A DNA stretch of 24,111 bases from Fibrobacterota bacterium (GTDB taxonomy: Bacteria; Fibrobacterota; Fibrobacteria; UBA11236). The notes below the pieces were generated by a model, which saw nothing but the letters and a program-made list of their open reading frames with translations, had not been told where the DNA came from and did no database searches. The stretch lies in assembly GCA_043753995.1 (NCBI GenBank), contig JAYUVP010000078.1:1-24111 (forward strand), written 5' to 3'. Position 1 is the first letter of the stretch. Every line of letters begins with the position of its first letter. Shown here in pieces: positions 3,031 through 16,245 of the stretch. The position numbers were made by a program, and so were the translations under genes.

Positions 3031-4209
3031 ATGAGCGAAGCCGTTATCGTCGCTGGGGCAAGAACCCCGGTGGGGAAGGGAGGCAAGGGTTCCTTTGCGC
3101 ATGTGCGGTCCGATACCCTCGCCGCGCTGACCGTAACTGAAACCCTGAAGCGCGCGCCTGGCATCCAGGCGGGCGACATCGACGATTTGATTCTGGGCTG
3201 CGCTATGCCTGAGGCTGAGCAAGGCATGAATGTAGCGCGCCTAGTGGTCTTTGAAGCGGGCTTGCCGGAAACCGTACCCGCCTTGACCGTGAATCGCTAT
3301 TGCAGTTCCGGCCTGCAGTCACTCGCTTATGCCAATGATCGCATTCTCCTGGGCGATGCTAAGGCCATATTGGCGGGCGGTCTCGAAAGCATGTCCATGA
3401 TACCTATGGGTGGGCACAAAATCGCGCCGAACCCCGACTTGGTGGCCGTGCGACCCGAAGCCTATTTCAATATGGGCCTCACCGCGGAGCGCGTTGCCGA
3501 AAAATATGGCGTGTCACGTCAAGATCAAGATGCTTTCAGTTTGTCTTCTCATCAAAAGGCCATAGCCGCTATTCAAGCGGGCCGTTTTGCCGATGAATCG
3601 ATAACGGTTTCCTGGACCGATGTTTCGGTGGATTCGCATCGCAAGGAAAAATCGACGCCGCGGTCCTTGGCTGTCGACGAAGGCCCACGCGCGGACACGA
3701 CACTCGAAGCCTTGAGTGGCTTGAAGCCCGCGTTCAAAGTCAACGGCACGGTGACGGCGGGAAATAGTTCCCAGGTTTCCGACGGGGCAGCAACCTTGCT
3801 GGTCACATCGCGTGAATTCGCCAAGGAAAGAGGCCTCAAGCCCATGGGCCGCCTTATTAAATACGCAGTGGTTGGCTTAGCTCCCGAAATCATGGGCATG
3901 GGTCCTGCCCTGGCCATACCCGCTGTATTGAAAATGGCGGGTTTGACCCTCGACCAAATCGATTTATTTGAAATCAATGAGGCTTTCGCTTCCCAATCTC
4001 TCGCTTGTGTACGTGAGTTGAAAATCGATGCCAACAAGGTCAATGTCAATGGAGGCGCCATCGCCCTGGGGCATCCGCTCGGATGCACGGGTGCGAAATT
4101 AAGTTTGACTCTTTTGCATGAACTTAAACGGCGTGGCGGTAAATATGGCGTGGTCTCCATGTGCATTGGCGGCGGCATGGGTGCCGCAGGGGTATTCGAA
4201 GCTTTTTAA
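3031..4209 (+). CDS. fadA: Acetyl-CoA C-acyltransferase (3-ketoacyl-CoA thiolase)
   Basis: NRYCSSGLQ active Cys, INEAFA, GGAIALGHPLG, MCIGGGMG; AGGAGG SD. Confidence 0.96.
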   Translation: MSEAVIVAGARTPVGKGGKGSFAHVRSDTLAALTVTETLKRAPGIQAGDIDDLILGCAMPEAEQGMNVARLVVFEAGLPETVPALTVNRYCSSGLQSLAYANDRILLGDAKAILAGGLESMSMIPMGGHKIAPNPDLVAVRPEAYFNMGLTAERVAEKYGVSRQDQDAFSLSSHQKAIAAIQAGRFADESITVSWTDVSVDSHRKEKSTPRSLAVDEGPRADTTLEALSGLKPAFKVNGTVTAGNSSQVSDGAATLLVTSREFAKERGLKPMGRLIKYAVVGLAPEIMGMGPALAIPAVLKMAGLTLDQIDLFEINEAFASQSLACVRELKIDANKVNVNGGAIALGHPLGCTGAKLSLTLLHELKRRGGKYGVVSMCIGGGMGAAGVFEAF

Positions 4210-5401
4210 GGCATTGCTTTTTTCAGCCATCGGGTGGATGGTGGCTGAAAAAGTTTGCGCCGCAACTACCTGGGCACCTAATAGCGAACACTTTCGATAT
4301 ACTGGACGCTTTGATTTCAGCGATCCCTTAAAACCTCGATTTGATTGGCCAGCCACGAGCATCGAAGTGGCTTTTACCGGTGCTTCGGCGACGATTTTAA
4401 TCAGCGGCGGAGACAACAATTTCGATATCTTCATCGACGGCGTAAAAAAAGACACCTTGGTTTTGCGCAGTAATGTCACCTCCTATGCAATCACCGGCCT
4501 AGGTGCCGGGGCGCATCAATTGCGGCTTTCCAAGCGCACCGAGGCCATTTATGGTCCTGCCGTCTTTGCTGGCTTAACGGTCGAGGACAATCAGGGTGAA
4601 GCCTCCTTGCCTGCCAAGCCTACGGCGAAAATTCTCTTCATTGGCGATTCCTTTACCGCAGGCTATGGCGATGAAGCCAAAATCTTGAGCTGCGGAGAAA
4701 GACGTCCCTATGACAATGCCAATCTCGCTTATGGGCCATTGACGGCCAGGGCCTTGAATGCGGATTTTCAAGTCATCGCCATATCGGGCAAAGGCATGGT
4801 TCACAATTATGGCGATACCAAACCTATTTCCGACGAGCCTATGCCATTGTATTTCGATCGAATCCTATATGCTAAGCCTGCCGGTAAGTGGGATTTCCCC
4901 TCTTGGATTCCGGATATTGTGGTCGTCGCTTTGGGGACTAATGATTTCAGTACCCAAGTCAAACCCAGCCTTGAGCAATACACGAGCGCGTATCAGGCCT
5001 TTTACGCCATCTTGCGTCTGCATTATCCCAATGCCCAATTGATTGGCTTGACCTATGCCGTAGATACCTTTCAGCCGGCTTATGTCGATACCCTGGTGAA
5101 AAGATGGACAGCCAAGGGCGATACCAAGGTGAAACAAGTGCGCCTGCCTTCCTTAGCCACCGCCGATCTCGGCTGTGATTATCATCCCAATGTTTCCGGG
5201 CAGCAAAAATACGCGGAAGTTCTAATTCCGGTCATTCGCCCAATGCTGCCTTCAAACGAAATACGCCAATCGCTTTTCCCCAAACAAAAAGAGCGGCGGT
5301 TAAACCGTCGCTCTTGGGTCGAAGCAAATCGCGACGGGCTAGGCCGTTCTCGCCTTGGGCTCAACCGGATAGTGCATTATACAGAGTTTCTTCGAGAGTG
5401 A
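4181..5401 (+). CDS. Secreted SGNH/GDSL hydrolase, carbohydrate esterase family CE2-like (acetylxylan/acetylmannan esterase)
   Basis: Signal peptide ending VCA|ATTW; N-terminal jelly-roll (YTGRF, DWPAT, LSKRTEA); FIGDSFTAGYG, LGTNDF, GCDYHP. Start uncertain (GTG 4181 or TTG 4214). Confidence 0.85.
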   Translation: MPQGYSKLFKALLFSAIGWMVAEKVCAATTWAPNSEHFRYTGRFDFSDPLKPRFDWPATSIEVAFTGASATILISGGDNNFDIFIDGVKKDTLVLRSNVTSYAITGLGAGAHQLRLSKRTEAIYGPAVFAGLTVEDNQGEASLPAKPTAKILFIGDSFTAGYGDEAKILSCGERRPYDNANLAYGPLTARALNADFQVIAISGKGMVHNYGDTKPISDEPMPLYFDRILYAKPAGKWDFPSWIPDIVVVALGTNDFSTQVKPSLEQYTSAYQAFYAILRLHYPNAQLIGLTYAVDTFQPAYVDTLVKRWTAKGDTKVKQVRLPSLATADLGCDYHPNVSGQQKYAEVLIPVIRPMLPSNEIRQSLFPKQKERRLNRRSWVEANRDGLGRSRLGLNRIVHYTEFLRE

Positions 5402-10002: not shown

Positions 10003-10704
10003 TTGAATCGCTCGGCTGTTGATTTCGTCCTGCTCGGGGCGATGGAGGCCGAGGTTTTGGAATTGTTGCGCCATGCCTTGGTCTTGAGCGAGGATAAATG
10101 GGCGGGCATTACCCTGTCCCATATTTCTTGGCTGGGTCGCCATTGCGTGGTGGCGCATTGCGGTGTAGGCAAAGTTTTTGGTGCCATGGTTTCTCAGCAT
10201 TGCCTAGATGCCTATCATCCCCAAGCCTTGATTTTCACCGGAGTCGCCGGAGCCTTGCATCCCGATCTGAATATCGGCGATGTGGTGGTGAGCCGGGATT
10301 TGATACAGCACGATGTCGATGGGCGTGCCCTTGGTTTTGAGCGCGGACGTCTGTTGTTAACGGATTGGAAAATTTTCCCGGCGGACGAAAATTTGCGGAA
10401 AAAGGCCATGTCTGCTCACCTGGAGGGCTTTACCCTAAGAGAAGGTCGCATTCTCACGGGCGACCAATTCATGACAAGGGAAAACATCCGCAGCCATTCC
10501 TACCTCACCGAGGAGCTGGCGGGAGACGCCGTGGAAATGGAAGGCGCCGCTGTGGCGCAAGTCTGCACCCTAAATCAAACCCCATTCTTGGTTGTGCGCA
10601 CTATATCCGATAAGGCGGATGGAGAAGCCGTTAACGACTTCAACGCCTTTTTGCCTGTCGTGGCGCATAATAGCTATGCCGTATTGCGGGCGGTATTGGA
10701 ATGA
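10003..10704 (+). CDS. mtnN: 5'-methylthioadenosine/S-adenosylhomocysteine nucleosidase
   Basis: GAMEAE, GVGKV, FTGVAG, TGDQF, VEMEGAA, RTISD; TTG start, exact start uncertain. Confidence 0.92.
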   Translation: MNRSAVDFVLLGAMEAEVLELLRHALVLSEDKWAGITLSHISWLGRHCVVAHCGVGKVFGAMVSQHCLDAYHPQALIFTGVAGALHPDLNIGDVVVSRDLIQHDVDGRALGFERGRLLLTDWKIFPADENLRKKAMSAHLEGFTLREGRILTGDQFMTRENIRSHSYLTEELAGDAVEMEGAAVAQVCTLNQTPFLVVRTISDKADGEAVNDFNAFLPVVAHNSYAVLRAVLE

Positions 10705-10714
10705 GGAGAAGAGA

Positions 10715-12586
10715 ATGCAGAGTCAGTTCCTGGGTATGCGGATTTTGGTTATTTGCGGTGCCATTGTCAGTGGTCAAGCCTTAGCGCAAACCTTAAAAGT
10801 CGAAGTGGCCGTGAATGGCCCCGTTACCGCCATCAGCCCCTTTATTTATGGCGCCAATGACTGGTGCAATAAATCTGACATTCCTTTTACTTCATCGCGC
10901 TCCGGCGGCAATCGTTTGACGGCCTATAATTGGGAATCCAATGCCTCCAATGCCGGCTCGGATTACCTGCACAATAGCGACAATTATATGGTTAAGGATT
11001 TTTCGGCAGCCGACCAAAAAATTCCCGGCCAGGTAGTTTTGGACCTTCAGAAAGTTTTTGGTGGTCGGAAGCAATACACCTTGGCCACGGTACCTGCCGC
11101 CGGATTTGTCGCTGCGGACATGAGTGGACAGGTGGCGACCGGCGAAGTCGCACCGAGCGCGCGCTGGAAGAAAATCACGGCGGAAAAGCCGGGAGGCAAC
11201 TATTCCTTAACACCTGATGCTAGTGATGGCGAGGTGTATACCGATGAATTCGTCAACGCCATGGTGAATAAGCTCGGCAAATCCACTTCAGGCGGAGTCA
11301 ATGCCTGGTCCATCGACAATGAACCCGGACTTTGGCGCTATACCCATCCCCGCATTTATCCTAATGCCCTCACCGTGAGCGATTTGATGGCCAAGTCGGT
11401 TGCTGCCGCTAAGGCCGTGAAGAAAATCGACACCGCCGCCGAAACCTATGGCCCGGCAACCTATGGCTGGGGCGAGATGATGGCTCAAGAAGGAGCCGAT
11501 TGGACCGCCACGCTTTCCAAGCAATATGACTGGTTCATTTCAGCCTATTTGGCCTTGATGAAATCGGAAAGCGACAAGGCAGGCCAACGTTTGCTCGATG
11601 TTTTGGACTTCCATTGGTATCCCGAATCCCAAGGCAGTTGCCGAATCATAATTACCGATTGTGATCAAGTCTCCACCGCACAAGCCGAAGCCCGCATGCA
11701 ATCCCCGCGATCCCTTTGGGACAGCACCTATGTCGAAAAAAGCTGGATTATCGATTCGAACGGCAAGAAAGCGATTCAGCTGATCAATCGCGTCAAGAAA
11801 TCCATCAAGGAACGATATCCAGGCACCAAGATGGCTGTGACTGAATATGAATACGGCGGACATGATCATTATTCCGGGGGTCTGGCCCAAGCGGATGTGC
11901 TTGGCATATTCGGAAGTCAAGGTTTATATATGGCCACGATTTGGTCGACACCGGGAAAATTCAGTGGCGCGGCATTCCAACTGTTTTTGAATTATGACGG
12001 CCAAGGTGGAAAATACGGCGATCGCTCCGTTCCGGCCATGGCCTCGGACAATGCTGCCCTTTCGACTTTCGCTGCTTTGAATAGCAAGGATTCCACCCGA
12101 TTGCATTTGATTGCCATCAATAAAAAAGCCTCGGCCCAACAAGTTCAATTCGCCTTGAATGGCAATATCTATACGGAAGGCAAGGTCTATGGTTTTGACG
12201 AGGCGTCGAATGGGTCGATTACTTCTCGTCAAGCCGTTACCGGAATTACAAGTAATTCCTTCACCTATTCCCTGCCCGCGCATTCGGCCATGCATTTCAT
12301 ATTAAAGGGCACCGTGGTAGGGCTTGGCGTGAACGAAATCAACCAGCCCAGGGTCCAGCCCTATTTTCAGATGGCCGGCCGCGATTTGATTCTCCGCCGT
12401 CCCATCAGCGAGGAGAGTGACCTGGAATACCGCGTCCTGGGATGGAATGGTCGCCACCTGGCGAGCCAGGTTTTAAAGTTCGGTCAAGCCCAAGCCGCGA
12501 TTCGAACCCTCCCTGTGGGGCGGCACATTCTTTCTATTTCTCGCGGGGGACAGCGGGTTCAGGTTTCTTCGCTGCTTGTGAAATAG
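10715..12586 (+). CDS. Secreted glycoside hydrolase family 44 endoglucanase/xyloglucanase with T9SS-like C-terminal domain
   Basis: Signal peptide (..QALA|QT); ISPFIYG, GGNRLTAYNWESNASNAGSDY, DNEP (acid/base), LDFHWYPE, VTEY (nucleophile); tail YRVLGWNGR...LPVGRHILSI. ATG 10715 after AGGAGA. Confidence 0.92.
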   Translation: MQSQFLGMRILVICGAIVSGQALAQTLKVEVAVNGPVTAISPFIYGANDWCNKSDIPFTSSRSGGNRLTAYNWESNASNAGSDYLHNSDNYMVKDFSAADQKIPGQVVLDLQKVFGGRKQYTLATVPAAGFVAADMSGQVATGEVAPSARWKKITAEKPGGNYSLTPDASDGEVYTDEFVNAMVNKLGKSTSGGVNAWSIDNEPGLWRYTHPRIYPNALTVSDLMAKSVAAAKAVKKIDTAAETYGPATYGWGEMMAQEGADWTATLSKQYDWFISAYLALMKSESDKAGQRLLDVLDFHWYPESQGSCRIIITDCDQVSTAQAEARMQSPRSLWDSTYVEKSWIIDSNGKKAIQLINRVKKSIKERYPGTKMAVTEYEYGGHDHYSGGLAQADVLGIFGSQGLYMATIWSTPGKFSGAAFQLFLNYDGQGGKYGDRSVPAMASDNAALSTFAALNSKDSTRLHLIAINKKASAQQVQFALNGNIYTEGKVYGFDEASNGSITSRQAVTGITSNSFTYSLPAHSAMHFILKGTVVGLGVNEINQPRVQPYFQMAGRDLILRRPISEESDLEYRVLGWNGRHLASQVLKFGQAQAAIRTLPVGRHILSISRGGQRVQVSSLLVK

Positions 12587-12592
12587 TGTTTT

Positions 12593-12612
12593 GGCTGCCT
12601 GTGAAGGCAGTC
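12593..12612. terminator. Hairpin between convergent genes (possible terminator)
   Basis: GGCTGCCT-GTGA-AGGCAGTC, 8-bp stem with GNRA loop; no clear U-tract. Confidence 0.45.
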
Positions 12613-12617
12613 GTCGT

Positions 12618-12908
12618 TCAGTTTAGGCTGCGCCAAAGCTGAACGACAAAAAGCAAGGCAAGCGCCAGGGCTACAAGGCTAATCCAAAGGGGAAAGCCTT
12701 TTCGCCTGGCGCCCTTGGCCCGATGGGATGTTTTGATGCCCAATTCGGATTCCAAATTCTCGGCATAATCCTCTTCGTCATTCCAGTCGACCGCACCTTC
12801 GGTAGAATCCGACCAACCGGTTTTTTCATCGGAGCCGCAATGGCGGCAAGCCTTGGCCTTGGCATCTATGGTTTCCCCGCAATGCGGGCAAGCGATCCAG
12901 TTTTTCAT
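12618..12908 (-). CDS. Small zinc-ribbon protein with C-terminal transmembrane helix
   Basis: CPHCG...CRHCG, acidic middle, hydrophobic C-terminus LWISLVALALALLFVVQLW. Confidence 0.8.
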   Translation of the reverse strand: MKNWIACPHCGETIDAKAKACRHCGSDEKTGWSDSTEGAVDWNDEEDYAENLESELGIKTSHRAKGARRKGFPLWISLVALALALLFVVQLWRSLN

Positions 12909-12962
12909 GATGTTAAAATGCTCAATAATTCCGGATTCGCCGATACCTTGGGAAGCAGGGCC

Positions 12963-14963
12963 TTAAAGCGATTCGAGGGCACCCACTAGGATTTCAGTAA
13001 AGGTGTTTTCATAGCCGATGCGCACTGTTGGCATTCCGGATTGCGCTGTTTCCTGAAAAGTATTTTGGCCGATGAGCCGCAAACCATAATTATTGGGAAA
13101 GGTGGCCAGCGGGATTTGAAATAGGCGACGACTTTGGCCATTCGAGAAGTAACCGCTGAGTACGCCATTTTGATCTATCGAGATTTGCTTCAGCCTGCCA
13201 ACCGCAAAGCCATTTTGAATGGTTATGGCAGCGGACGACGGCGAACGGAAAAGCGTTAAGCCGGTAAAGTCTTTCGGCCCTCCCGCTTTGATCTGAATTG
13301 AAATGGGATTGTGGCCTTGGCTTGTTCGAATCACTAGTCGATTCGACTTGTCATTAAAAGCAAAGGTGGCGACCGAGCCATCATCCTGAAACCACATAGT
13401 GCCATCACGGCCTTGTTCAATAGAGGCCTTTCCCTCGGTTTGAAAAGACCACAACCATGAATTGGGACGATTTGTTGGCGTGAACCGTAGCTTTAATAGG
13501 TGGGCCTGGCCTAATTCGTCGTAGATGGTAATAGAGCTTTCCACGATTCGTGCATCCATGGCATTTTGCATCGTACTCATGCTCAAATTGTTGTCGAAAT
13601 TATTAGGACTCGGGGAAGCATTATGCGCATTAGAGGCATGAGTAGAAATTTTGGACAAGCCAAAATTTACACCGGGCTGACCACGAAGGATGATGGCACC
13701 ATCGGGAATATTGTCTTGGCTACCGGCAGGGTTCACCGAAACGGAAAGGTTTGCTTCCAATGTGCCATCGTAAGTAGGCAATTTGAAAGAATCTCGAATA
13801 AGGTTAAAAAGCATTTGAAGGGTGATTTCACTGCTCCCTAACCCTTCACCATAGGTTATCGGGGTAATTGGGGTAATGCTATTTGCGCCAATATTTCCGG
13901 TAACGCTAATCAGGTCGCCGTCTTCAAGCCCCAAGGATCTGCCACTGGCATCAAACAATTGAGACAGAGAGTCCTGAGGCACGGCGGGTGCACGCAAGGT
14001 TTCGGTGGTAATTTGCATGAACGCGACTGAGTCAGGGATGGTTTCGGGTAAGGCGAAGGCCTTGGTCACCTTAGGGCTGCTAATGGGTCGGTCGGAGGTG
14101 ATTTGAAAATTCTTGATTGCTTTGGAATTGGAGTGGATGGAGATAGCACCGCGTAAGGTGGCAGACTCGTGAGATTCCACTATCGCGACTTGGGTAGATA
14201 TGCCCGAACCTACGGCAAGGCTTCTTAAAAAGGTGGTCACGGAATAAACCAACTCCCCCAAGGTGCCTTGATCCTGGATCTGAAAAGTTTGATTGACATC
14301 GGTACCATTGACATTCACGGAAAAGGTGAGAACGTCTCCATCCCGCATTCCCAAATCTTCTCCATCGGCGCCCTTGAGGCTGACAAGCAACGTGCTTTTT
14401 TTTGCATTGTGAAGAAAAGCTTGGGATACAGAGATGCTGCCTTTGGCATAGGCATCAGAGTCCAGGTTGCGCGCCAATTGGATTTCGCTTGTCGCCTTGG
14501 GAGGCGCTAAATCTTCATAAGGCCATTGTATATCGACAAGCTGCGACAGATTCAAAACTCCCACTTGCCCGCTGATGGGCCTTTCTTCGCCATAAGGGTT
14601 GGAATCGTTGTAGAGCCTGATGCCCTGCAGGCGCGCCTTGTCATTTCCCAAGGTCAGAAATCCATTCGCATTTTGAACAAAATGACCGGGTCGGCGAAAG
14701 TAAATGTATTGGCTCTGATTTTTTAGAATGAAAAAGCCCTTGCCTTCCAAAGCCAAATCCATGTTTTCGCCGGTCGAAAGGATTTGCCCTTGTTTGAAAT
14801 CGTAGGCATTCACCCTTACTTGGCCTTTTTCAACGTCCAGGGAATCGAAGGACGATTCGCTTGCGGGGGAAACGGAGGAGTTGCAGTGGTTTAATGCGGC
14901 CATGCAAAACAGGGAGACGGCGATTACGCCAAGCGAAGGAATTCGGTTTATGCATTTATTCAT
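12963..14963 (-). CDS. Flagellar hook FlgE-like protein lacking both D0 termini, with putative lipoprotein signal peptide
   Basis: FlgE core motifs DFKQG..STGENMDLALEGKGFF, KAT..NLDS, SITIYDELGQAH, NGFAVGRL..ISIDQNG, YFSNG, LATFPN..GL, ETAQSG, GALES. No N-terminal ANNIAN/GFK block and no C-terminal SNV..Q helix. Confidence 0.85.
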   Translation of the reverse strand: MNKCINRIPSLGVIAVSLFCMAALNHCNSSVSPASESSFDSLDVEKGQVRVNAYDFKQGQILSTGENMDLALEGKGFFILKNQSQYIYFRRPGHFVQNANGFLTLGNDKARLQGIRLYNDSNPYGEERPISGQVGVLNLSQLVDIQWPYEDLAPPKATSEIQLARNLDSDAYAKGSISVSQAFLHNAKKSTLLVSLKGADGEDLGMRDGDVLTFSVNVNGTDVNQTFQIQDQGTLGELVYSVTTFLRSLAVGSGISTQVAIVESHESATLRGAISIHSNSKAIKNFQITSDRPISSPKVTKAFALPETIPDSVAFMQITTETLRAPAVPQDSLSQLFDASGRSLGLEDGDLISVTGNIGANSITPITPITYGEGLGSSEITLQMLFNLIRDSFKLPTYDGTLEANLSVSVNPAGSQDNIPDGAIILRGQPGVNFGLSKISTHASNAHNASPSPNNFDNNLSMSTMQNAMDARIVESSITIYDELGQAHLLKLRFTPTNRPNSWLWSFQTEGKASIEQGRDGTMWFQDDGSVATFAFNDKSNRLVIRTSQGHNPISIQIKAGGPKDFTGLTLFRSPSSAAITIQNGFAVGRLKQISIDQNGVLSGYFSNGQSRRLFQIPLATFPNNYGLRLIGQNTFQETAQSGMPTVRIGYENTFTEILVGALESL

Positions 14964-15008
14964 GGTTTGTGAATTATTCCAAACTTGGGTGATTGTGTTC
15001 AGGATTTC

Positions 15009-15024
15009 AGCAATTACCCTGCCA
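15009..15024 (-). promoter_or_regulatory. Sigma54 (-24/-12) promoter for the FlgE-like gene
   Basis: Minus strand reads TGGCAGGGTAATTGCT versus consensus TGGCACGNNNNTTGCW (one mismatch, exact GG-N10-GC), 45 nt upstream of ATG 14963. Confidence 0.75.
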
Positions 15025-15219
15025 GTATCGCATCCTGAGAATAGGGCGATTGCCGCGATTTTTCGAAATCAAGATGTCGAATGGCTAGTTAATCAGGAAA
15101 TACGGAAAATTCGGCAGGCAATATTTACCTACCGAATGGTGACGAAGAGAAAATTCTACCGAGAGATCAAATCTGTAAGGAAGGGCGAATTCTATCGCCT
15201 GTGCGTAATTCCGCGCTCA

Positions 15220-16245
15220 TCACAACAAGGCTTCTTGCAGCGATTGCGGGGGTGGGGGAGTGAGGCCTAAATGCTTATAGGCTCCCAAGGTCGCGACGCG
15301 ACCGCGATGCGTGCGTTTCAGTAAGCCCGACTGAATTAAATAGGGCTCATAAACTTCTTCAATGGTTTCGGTTTCTTCGCCCAGGGCGGCACCCAGGGTC
15401 GAAAGGCCCACGGGGCCGCCGTCGAATTTGCTGATAATGGTGCGCAAGATGCCGCGATCCATTTCGTCGAGTCCGGCGACGTCTATGCCCAGCATGTCCA
15501 AGGTTTTGATGGCTATAGCGGTATCGATCAACTTTTGGCCCTTTACTTGGGCCACATCGCGACAACGGCGCAAAACGCGATTGGCTATGCGCGGGGTGCC
15601 ACGGCAACGCGAGGCCAGGGCATCCAGGCCGTCTCCGTCGATTTTCATTCCGAGTATTTGCGCGCTGCGCTTCAGGATGAGGCGCATTTCGTTTTCGCTA
15701 TAGGTTTCAAGACGGAAGGTGAGTCCGAAGCGATCGCGCAATGGCGAGGTTAGCATGCCGCTGCGCGTGGTGGCGCCAATCAGGGTGAAACGCTTGAGCG
15801 GCAAATTGATGCACTTCGCCGATGGCCCCGATTCAAGCATGATGTCGATTTTGAAATCTTCCATGGCCGGATAGAGAAATTCTTCGACGACGCGTGAAAG
15901 CCGGTGAATTTCATCGATGAAAAGCACGTCATGGGTTTCGAGATTGGTGAGCAAGCCCGCCAATTCCGAAGGCTTGTCGAGGGCGGGGCCCGAGGTGATT
16001 TTCAGATTTGCGCCCATTTCCCTGGCGATAATATGCGCGAGGGTGGTTTTGCCTAAACCAGGTGGCCCGGCAAAAAGCAAATGATCGATGGGCTCATTTC
16101 TTTCCTTGGCGGCCTGGAGAAAGACGCTGAGATTTTCTTTGAGCTTTTCCTGGCCGACAAATTCTTGAAGGGTTTGCGGCCTTAAAGTCAATTCTTGTTC
16201 GGAGTCGTCGCCGAATTGTTCAGGGGCAATAATGCGTTCTGACAT
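15220..16245 (-). CDS. ruvB: Holliday junction branch migration helicase RuvB
   Basis: [50 protein letters not shown]. Start ATG 16245 or GTG 16254. Confidence 0.98.

Follow-up and report, generated by a model that had tools for sequence, protein, structure and literature searches.

Background

What would a flagellar hook subunit do with a signal peptide? The question is raised by a gene on the minus strand of a 24,111-nt stretch of DNA from a Fibrobacterota bacterium (contig JAYUVP010000078.1 of assembly GCA_043753995.1; hereafter, "the window" means this whole stretch). Its product resembles the hook protein FlgE over the D1, D2 and outer domains, but it has neither of the terminal D0 segments ("D0-less" hereafter) and begins with a signal peptide followed by a Cys. 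Flagellar axial proteins are textbook substrates of type III export, defined by their terminal helices, and in canonical FlgE the terminal D0/Dc segments serve both flagellar type III export and polymerisation. With these segments absent, the window protein is unlikely to use flagellar type III export or to be incorporated into a hook.

A first-pass annotation had described the gene as an "orphan" of one genome. In the present work, we find that it belongs instead to an older family with homologues in other genomes, and we consider it probable, though by no means certain, that this is a conserved family of FlgE-derived envelope proteins, exported by Sec, tethered to the membrane and unable to polymerise, i.e., mimics of the hook subunit. 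Full-text literature searches, with most subscription journals outside their coverage, found no paper on a FlgE homologue that is D0-less or of lipoprotein type. The family is apparently undescribed, and it appears to be a new architecture of a well-known family rather than a new fold or system.

Results

An intact FlgE-like gene without D0-coding ends

The reading frame is open over its full 666 amino acids, as the first-pass annotation had stated, and our translation agrees with the one it quoted, from MNKCINRIPSLGVIAVSLFCMAALNHCNSS... to ...GALESL and the stop codon. The profile searches gave what it had expected: the Pfam family FlgE_D2 is matched (Table 1), and neither the N-terminal D0 domain (PF00460, Flg_bb_rod) nor the C-terminal one (PF06429, Flg_bbr_C) is found even at E ≤ 1. 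The D1 match in Pfam, over residues 71-107, is sub-threshold. In NCBIfam, TIGR03506 (the FlgE/F/G hook-basal-body subfamily) scores 135.3 bits against a cut-off of 70.25. The FlgE equivalog models stay far under their cut-offs and match the interior only, ending about 40 profile positions early (e.g., at 374 of 414).

Both D0 domains were also sought outside the gene. A six-frame search for PF06429 and PF00460 across the genome, at E ≤ 0.1, finds only the canonical axial genes on contigs C63, C107, C115, C122 and C203; contig C78, to which the window belongs, gives no match. Together with the alignment described below, these searches support the earlier claim that both D0 ends were lost and a Sec-type signal with a Cys was gained. 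At the C-terminus, the window protein ends two residues after its GALE motif, at the point where the G-x-[ILV]-[EDK] motif of canonical FlgE runs on into the terminal helix (...PGALELSNVELAQEF...). A remnant of the C-terminal tail after the stop codon was looked for by eye in three frames and none was seen; read-through of the TAA enters an unrelated zinc-ribbon gene.

The predicted structure is that of a hook-protein core. An AlphaFold2 (AF2) model built from a 39-row alignment has a mean predicted local distance difference test score (pLDDT) of 83.4 and a predicted template modelling score of 0.66. Residues 1-67 and 661-666 fall below a pLDDT of 50, and the low values over residues 1-67 lead us to regard the signal peptide and the ~40-residue tether that follows it as disordered. 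Foldseek returns 30 matches with E ≤ 0.001, the top two being Campylobacter FlgE structures 5jxl (3.5e-22) and 5az4 (3.8e-20), and all 13 matches in a sequence search of solved chains are FlgE or FlgG. Two repeated alpha/beta domains lie in the centre of the protein. The stretch that contains them (residues ~205-470) has the appearance of an internal tandem duplication of a ~130-residue alpha/beta domain, to judge from a repeated strand-strand-helix pattern and an LG..GD motif that occurs twice; canonical FlgEs of the phylum share it.

A family of D0-less proteins with a common architecture

A word-indexed protein search returned 42 matches. Thirty are canonical FlgEs of 700-957 amino acids with both D0 Pfam domains, some of them named Fibrobacteres by their source, and the remaining 12 have neither domain: P0001, which is the window entry, and P0002-P0007, P0009-P0012 and P0037. 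The 11 homologues in this second group are 653-698 amino acids long and 33-48% identical to the window protein. In all 12 aligned proteins the signal peptide ends in a Cys, a DSLD-type motif follows 13-16 residues past it, and D1 has a FFILKN..YFRRP block that is distinctive of the group. Ten also carry a two-Cys C-terminal tail (C-x3-P-x-C), which the window protein and P0037 do not have.

More distant members came from a profile search of 1.84 billion representatives followed by a crude motif screen (a hydrophobic stretch plus a Cys). This added 20 D0-less representatives with signal peptide and Cys, among the 149 listed besides the window entry; they are 200-766 amino acids long, some being fragments. 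The source names of two representatives are Candidatus Raymondbacteria and Bacteriovoracaceae, and the annotation reads "hypothetical" or "FlgE". Translated loci supplied three further members, from genomes G292, G294 and G295, which brings the set to 35 D0-less FlgE-like proteins with signal peptide and Cys (12 close, 20 wider representatives and 3 from translated loci). The search for homologues of like architecture that the first-pass annotation had proposed thus yields 11 close ones and more distant ones besides.

The set also changes how the C-terminus is read. The first-pass annotation had treated the stop after GALESL as a special truncation. Across the 35 proteins, 10 end within 11 residues of G-x-[ILV]-[EDK] and 11 carry the two-Cys tail (the others are fragments or unmatched by the pattern), so the GALESL stop is the usual end of the D0-less family.

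Two further observations concern individual members. In the proteins of G294, G295 and G292, a C-x3-C pair lies inside the C-terminal D1 segment (e.g., ALCDFPCK), a segment devoid of Cys in canonical FlgE as well as in the window protein; the pair is consistent with a disulfide formed in an oxidising compartment. In the representative library, the 1611-residue protein P0064 has an N-terminal signal-like sequence and six stretches that match the family profile, hinting at the reuse of FlgE-like domains in a large secreted protein. The ESM Atlas gave weak leads only (scores 0.81-0.86), and PADLOC and PHROGs gave no match for the window protein.

To describe the distribution, we consider two sets of genomes, whose tallies include one unpublished genome (G021) with a canonical-type match only. 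Among the source genome and 40 relatives, 26 of 41 have a FlgE-type match; 11 relatives' loci were translated, giving 2 D0-less (G006, G017) and 9 canonical forms, and the loci of the other relatives were classed by the start of the match in the query only. A scan of 296 genomes of the phylum at E ≤ 1e-20 found a FlgE-type match in 129. As three candidates were scored per genome, the count of the D0-less form is a lower bound: it occurs in at least eight of these 129 genomes, namely G000 (the source), G006, G017, G279, G280 (a fragment), G292, G294 and G295. All eight have a second FlgE-type match, in G279 and G280 by profile coordinates only and in G292 as an unclassified fragment at a contig end.

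Signal peptide, Cys27 and tether

The Cys at position 27 of the window protein falls in a column that is invariant in all 12 aligned sequences. Over the set of 35, the residue before this Cys is most often G (16 proteins) or A (12); S, N and H occur twice each and T once. The caution of the first-pass annotation about the lipobox was well placed: 30 of the 35 proteins have G, A or S at position -1, and the window protein reads LNH-C. Most relatives are inferred to be lipid-anchored at the Cys. Given the atypical lipobox, the window copy is likely to be exported via Sec, and its lipidation is uncertain; cleavage by signal peptidase II is doubtful for this copy, which may stay anchored by an uncleaved signal or be cut elsewhere.

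Asp, Glu or Asn stands at +2 in 18 of the 35 members, a position for which no sorting rule is established in this phylum. In some members the Cys is followed by K-(D/E)-rich residues (CSKDD in the G292 member), and the first acidic residue of the window protein comes at +9. K-(D/E)2 is described as a surface-export signal of Bacteroidetes lipoproteins (PMC5080379), a rule likewise not established for this phylum.

D1 and the centre of the protein suggest different ancestries

Sliding identity along the window protein separates D1 from the centre. Over D1 (residues ~40-200 and 580-660), the protein is 59-70% identical to its lipoprotein-type homologues versus 19-46% (mostly 19-36%) to the FlgE of its own genome. 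Over the centre (~200-500), identity to its own FlgE is 48-75%, higher than to any of the lipoprotein-type homologues (mean 32-56%) and than to other canonical FlgEs (mean 38-59%). The overall identity to the own-genome FlgE is 46-50%.

Quick trees were built for both regions, with the groups named beforehand by D0 loss, which could itself speed the evolution of D1. The D1 trees place the lipoprotein-type proteins all on one side of a branch (12 of 12 and 15 of 15, each at a starred value of 99). In the central trees, the window copy and its own FlgE are sisters (a starred 100) and the lipoprotein-type proteins are interleaved with canonical FlgEs, the label requiring eight changes, at least six of them forced by starred branches. 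The approximately unbiased (AU) test rejects monophyly of the lipoprotein-type proteins in the centre (p 1.3e-64; p 0.003 without P0037), and in D1 it rejects a clade of the window copy and its own FlgE (p 8.7e-6).

The pattern extends beyond the window genome. In all five genomes with both full copies, the centre of the D0-less protein has a higher identity with its own FlgE than with the best of the others: 61% versus 51% in the window genome (G000), 65% versus 62% in G006 and likewise in G017, 84% versus 55% in G294, and 75% versus 56% in G295. For D1, identity between lipoprotein-type proteins of different genomes is 54-89%, versus 32-38% to the own FlgE (G000, G006, G017). At the nucleotide level, the G294 pair shares an 83-nt exact match, where third-position identity reaches 85% between flanks at 28-38%; so sharp a tract of high identity between flanks of ~30% is the signature of a conversion tract and not of whole-gene duplication. 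For the G295 pair, third-position identity is mostly 35-55% over the centre and lower, 20-32%, on the N-terminal flank; the central values of the window genome are mostly 30-43% (range 27-47%). A recent conversion in the window genome was considered and rejected, the window gene and its own flgE sharing no exact match of 14 nt or more; this and the low third-position identity indicate that any exchange there is old.

Own-FlgE-like centres across genomes, together with the 83-nt tract of G294, point to gene conversion that recurs. Our reading of these comparisons is that of one old family, in which the hook-surface domains have been overwritten several times from the resident flgE while the family's own D1 was kept.

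Selection or decay

Synonymous sites are too diverged for a direct estimate on the window gene. In six comparisons by the NG86 method, synonymous divergence (dS) is 6 or undefined, i.e., saturated, with nonsynonymous divergence (dN) at 0.38-0.71; no branch-specific dN/dS is given. The lipoprotein-type pair of G006 and G017 gives dN/dS of 0.13 in D1 and 0.21 in the centre. An architecture common to 11 close and further, more distant homologues argues for selection rather than decay, and a 2-kb frame that stays open over such divergence argues against decay of long standing. Within the family there is purifying selection. The first-pass annotation had inferred selection for a monomeric, lipid-anchored FlgE core; the selection part gains from the shared architecture, the open frame at saturated dS and the dN/dS of 0.13-0.21, while the monomeric state and lipidation are still inferred only.

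A candidate sigma-54 promoter

A motif scan found a sigma-54-type promoter candidate upstream of the window gene (Table 1). Sites of the form GG-N10-GC (TGGCAC-N5-TTGC type) precede four of the six family members examined, those of the window, G292, G294 and G295. The source genome has rpoN, and similar sites lie upstream of its own flgB (C107:25751-25766) and flgF (C63, minus strand, L002 1851-1865). Sigma-54 dependence of the window gene is plausible on these motifs. Other intergenic candidates precede genes for periplasmic binding proteins, a nitrite/sulfite reductase, Hsp20, a copper oxidase-cytochrome c and PEP-CTERM proteins. Scans for sigma-70 promoters and terminators gave counts at chance level.

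The sites before flgB and flgF suggest that this lineage of Fibrobacterota has its rod genes under sigma-54 control. The G292 family member has a near-perfect site in front of it, TGGCAT-N5-TTGCT, along with a 32-nt palindrome (L074 4385-4420), and directly upstream of this member lies the gene for a 750-residue sigma-54 activator (L092 152-2404) with an unassigned N-terminal region of 430 residues.

The gene and its locus

The start codon requires some care, since the database gene call (P0001) has 616 amino acids and starts at the GTG codon 51. Upstream of that codon lie Cys27 and the DSLD motif at residues 40-43; as both align with the 11 homologues, the ATG start is supported. Upstream of the ATG, only 35 further codons are open, none of them a start codon; ruvB ends at 15220. 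One public contig shows 0 differences over 13849-15300 (it may come from the source sample and would then not be independent), and 12600-13848 lies outside its span.

The source genome is a 5.2-Mb assembly in 356 contigs. The separate full-length flgE that the first-pass annotation proposed to look for is present: a canonical 720-residue flgE on contig C203, adjoining a FlgD-like gene, with flgF and flgG on contig C63. Also as stated there, no other flagellar gene lies in the window (0 flagellar among the 22 window open reading frames scanned). The neighbours of the FlgE-like gene are ruvB, a zinc-ribbon membrane protein and a glycoside hydrolase family 44 (GH44) enzyme (Table 1).

The next gene downstream, 54 nt past the stop codon, encodes the 96-residue zinc-ribbon protein, with the zinc ribbon at its N-terminus and a transmembrane helix at its C-terminus. 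It is in frame with the FlgE-like gene, and a fusion of the two would result if the TAA were read through. The zinc-ribbon protein has weak matches to phage families of unknown function, and it is absent beside the homologues in other genomes. Near the FlgE-like gene lie the GH44 glycoside hydrolase, with its long C-terminal extension, and a CE2 esterase; the two are typical of a polysaccharide-degrading organism and are not conserved beside the homologues.

Table 1. Features of the FlgE-like gene and its surroundings, in window positions
Feature	Positions	Strand	Detail	Basis
D0-less FlgE-like coding sequence	12963..14963	-	666 amino acids, ATG start; stop codon at 12963-12965	sequence read directly, Pfam, NCBIfam
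Signal peptide (predicted)	14886..14963	-	residues 1-26; n-region K3 + R7, h-region IPSLGVIAVSLFCMAAL, c-region N-H	sequence read, aligned with 11 homologues
Cys27 codon	14883..14885	-	positional equivalent of the family's putatively lipid-modified +1 Cys; lipobox atypical (LNH-C)	
Predicted disordered tether	14763..14882	-	residues 28-67; family motif DSLD at 40-43	AF2 pLDDT <50, alignment
N-terminal part of D1, lipoprotein-family type	14439..14762	-	~residues 68-175	sliding identity, trees
Central hook-surface region	13464..14363	-	~residues 201-500; closest to own flgE; putative old conversion/recombination tract	identity, trees, AU test
C-terminal part of D1, lipoprotein-family type	12984..13205	-	residues 587-660	sliding identity, alignment
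FlgE_D2 match	13206..13541	-	residues 475-586; E 3e-10, score 41.2 versus cut-off 22.7	Pfam
Sigma-54-type promoter candidate TGGCAG-N5-TTGC	15010..15024	-	46 nt upstream of ATG	motif scan
Apparent tandem duplication of alpha/beta domain	13554-14351		residues ~205-470	repeated strand-strand-helix pattern, LG..GD twice
Zinc-ribbon protein	12618-12908	-	96 amino acids	
GH44 glycoside hydrolase	10592-12586	+	long C-terminal extension	
CE2 esterase	4118-5401	+		

Discussion

The window protein keeps the D1, D2 and outer domains of FlgE, with a signal peptide, a Cys and a predicted disordered tether of ~40 residues in place of the D0/Dc ends. In the reading that we favour, it would leave the cytoplasm by Sec and be held at the membrane by a lipid or, given LNH-C, by an uncleaved or differently cleaved signal peptide. 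Because D0 and Dc are absent, it should neither use the flagellar export gate nor polymerise; it would thus be unable to enter or build a hook and would instead be a monomeric, tethered mimic whose outer surface matches that of the hook of its cell. Expression may take place alongside sigma-54-dependent genes, which in the source genome would include flgB and flgF. The family-specific D1 would do the family's own job, and the outer domains would be interchangeable with those of the cell's hook. That conversion is tolerated only in the centre, that the gene occurs only in flgE-bearing genomes and that its distribution is patchy all fit such a tethered mimic.

What the protein binds is a matter of speculation. 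It might engage whatever binds the outer domains of the hook, most likely the hook itself through homotypic FlgE contacts, with docking or modulation at the hook base; alternatively, and just as speculatively, it might bind an external ligand. It might also titrate a factor that binds the hook, and the roles put forward in the first-pass annotation (adhesin, decoy, modulator of hook assembly) are likewise conjectural. More doubtful, and offered as a tentative possibility only, is the fuller proposal that conversion keeps the outer face of the replica matched to the hook, and that the replica brakes, tethers or collars the rotating hook under a sigma-54 activator or else acts as a decoy. If true, hook mimicry would be a new way in which a flagellar axial protein is put to use apart from type III export.

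Several observations weigh against a conserved, tethered hook mimic. The family is sparse, with the D0-less form in at least 8 of 129 FlgE-bearing genomes, and no neighbour is conserved across the loci of the window, G006, G279, G017, G292, G294 and G295. The window lipobox, L-N-H-C, fails the pattern [LVI][ASTVI][GAS]C through N at -2 and H at -1, a His at -1 being found in just two of the 35 proteins, the window protein and the G294 copy. No sigma-54-type motif is seen upstream of the G006 and G017 copies; sites of this type are not above chance in the window (4 versus 2.2 expected), strict sites number 33 genome-wide versus ~30 expected by our own arithmetic, and because candidates also stand before nitrogen, stress and PEP-CTERM genes, the promoter alone ties the gene to no flagellar regulon. 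The D1 trees carry a long-branch-join warning. Finally, the window copy keeps 130 of the 153 columns (85%) that are invariant in the ten other close homologues, which keep 91-99%, and its terminal branches are long (0.5-0.66), so that constraint on this copy may be relaxed.

The last of these points would also be explained if the window copy were a decaying family member, with its frame still open but no longer properly processed or functional. The degenerate lipobox, the lowest retention of family-invariant columns, the long terminal branches and the missing two-Cys tail, found in 10 of 11 close homologues, all lean that way. We nevertheless think decay improbable, because all 666 codons are open despite synonymous sites saturated against every relative, proteins of the wider family commonly end just past GA[ILV]E, the G294 copy is intact and recently converted despite its own His at -1, and the sigma-54-type promoter candidate is retained. 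It is highly improbable that each lipoprotein form arose independently from its own flgE, with the likeness in D1 due to convergence or long-branch attraction and no gene conversion at all. The central trees do pair lipoprotein-type proteins with local FlgEs, and long-branch joins are flagged in the D1 trees; against this stand the shared derived traits (the signal peptide and position of the Cys, DSLD, FFILKN..YFRRP and the C-terminal end point), the D1 identities of 54-89% versus 32-38%, the AU rejection of the window copy with its own FlgE in D1, and the 83-nt exact tract of G294, with 85% third-position identity between ~30% flanks. That a normal flgE was misassembled or misannotated, as the 356 contigs of the assembly might suggest, is hardly credible: a complete canonical flgE lies elsewhere in the genome, homologues from other assemblies have the same architecture, contig C78 holds no D0-coding sequence, and the public contig, possibly from the same sample, is exact over 13849-15300.

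Two further alternatives concern what the protein does rather than what it is. It could be a fixed accessory structure at the motor or hook base of the flagellum, where lipoprotein copies would form a periplasmic or outer-membrane collar; its occurrence only in genomes with a FlgE-type match (in G279, G280 and G292 by profile coordinates or fragments), the sigma-54-type sites also found before flgB and flgF, and the strong conservation of D1 within the family agree with this. We hold it to be unlikely, given that, at three candidates scored per genome, the D0-less form was seen in just 8 of the 129 FlgE-bearing genomes (a lower bound), that in none of the seven contexts read does the gene adjoin flagellar genes, and that it evolves faster than FlgE in the central trees. 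Unlikely to a similar degree is a decoy or adhesin that displays hook-like domains on the surface to phages, predators or substrates, with conversion updating the mimicry. A patchy distribution, fast evolution and outer domains repeatedly resynchronised with the resident hook would be expected of it, and CSKDD in the G292 member resembles the Bacteroidetes K-(D/E)2 signal (PMC5080379); that signal was defined in another phylum, however, and in the window protein the acidic residue nearest to the Cys stands at +9. PADLOC and PHROGs also leave the window protein without a match. Nor is a hook-binding phage of these bacteria known to us, though no search aimed at one was made.

If a tethered mimic of the hook subunit is the correct reading, a natural family has dropped the terminal helices, switched to a Sec/lipoprotein route and stayed under purifying selection, and the hook-subunit core would therefore have a second job in the cell envelope. 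Region-specific, recurrent conversion offers a testable evolutionary signature, with D1 protected and the hook-surface domains interchangeable. There is a practical side as well: the source-name labels on family members include "flagellar hook protein FlgE", "hook-basal body protein" and "hypothetical", and such labels can both miscount hook genes and hide the D0-less family.

Comparison with known systems

Like bacterial lipoproteins processed by Lgt and LspA, the window protein has both an n-region and an h-region, with a Cys at the +1 position that is invariant in the family. The lipoboxes of its relatives are canonical; its own -2 and -1 residues (N, H) are outside the usual [ASTVI][GAS]. 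In fold and in sequence, its closest counterparts are the large multi-domain FlgEs of Campylobacter jejuni (5jxl, 5az4), with which it has the D1/D2 fold and extra outer domains in common. Unlike canonical FlgE, it has no D0 or Dc segment at either end, it has a Sec/lipoprotein-type signal rather than a type III export signal, its gene is outside any flagellar cluster, and its D1 sits on a long, separate branch.

Helicobacter pylori FlgE2 (5npy), the third-best Foldseek match (3.9e-15), is likewise a FlgE paralogue, of uncertain role, encoded away from the main hook gene. Its chain of 618 residues, however, runs 93 residues past the stretch aligned to D2-D1 of the window protein (chain 359-525), and FlgE2 is therefore not cut where the window protein ends. 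The same D1-D2 core without terminal helices is found in FlgE31-type fragments (1wlg; Foldseek E 1.1e-11), which do not polymerise. These fragments are laboratory truncations, whereas the window protein is made from a natural gene and has, besides the core, an export signal and further domains.

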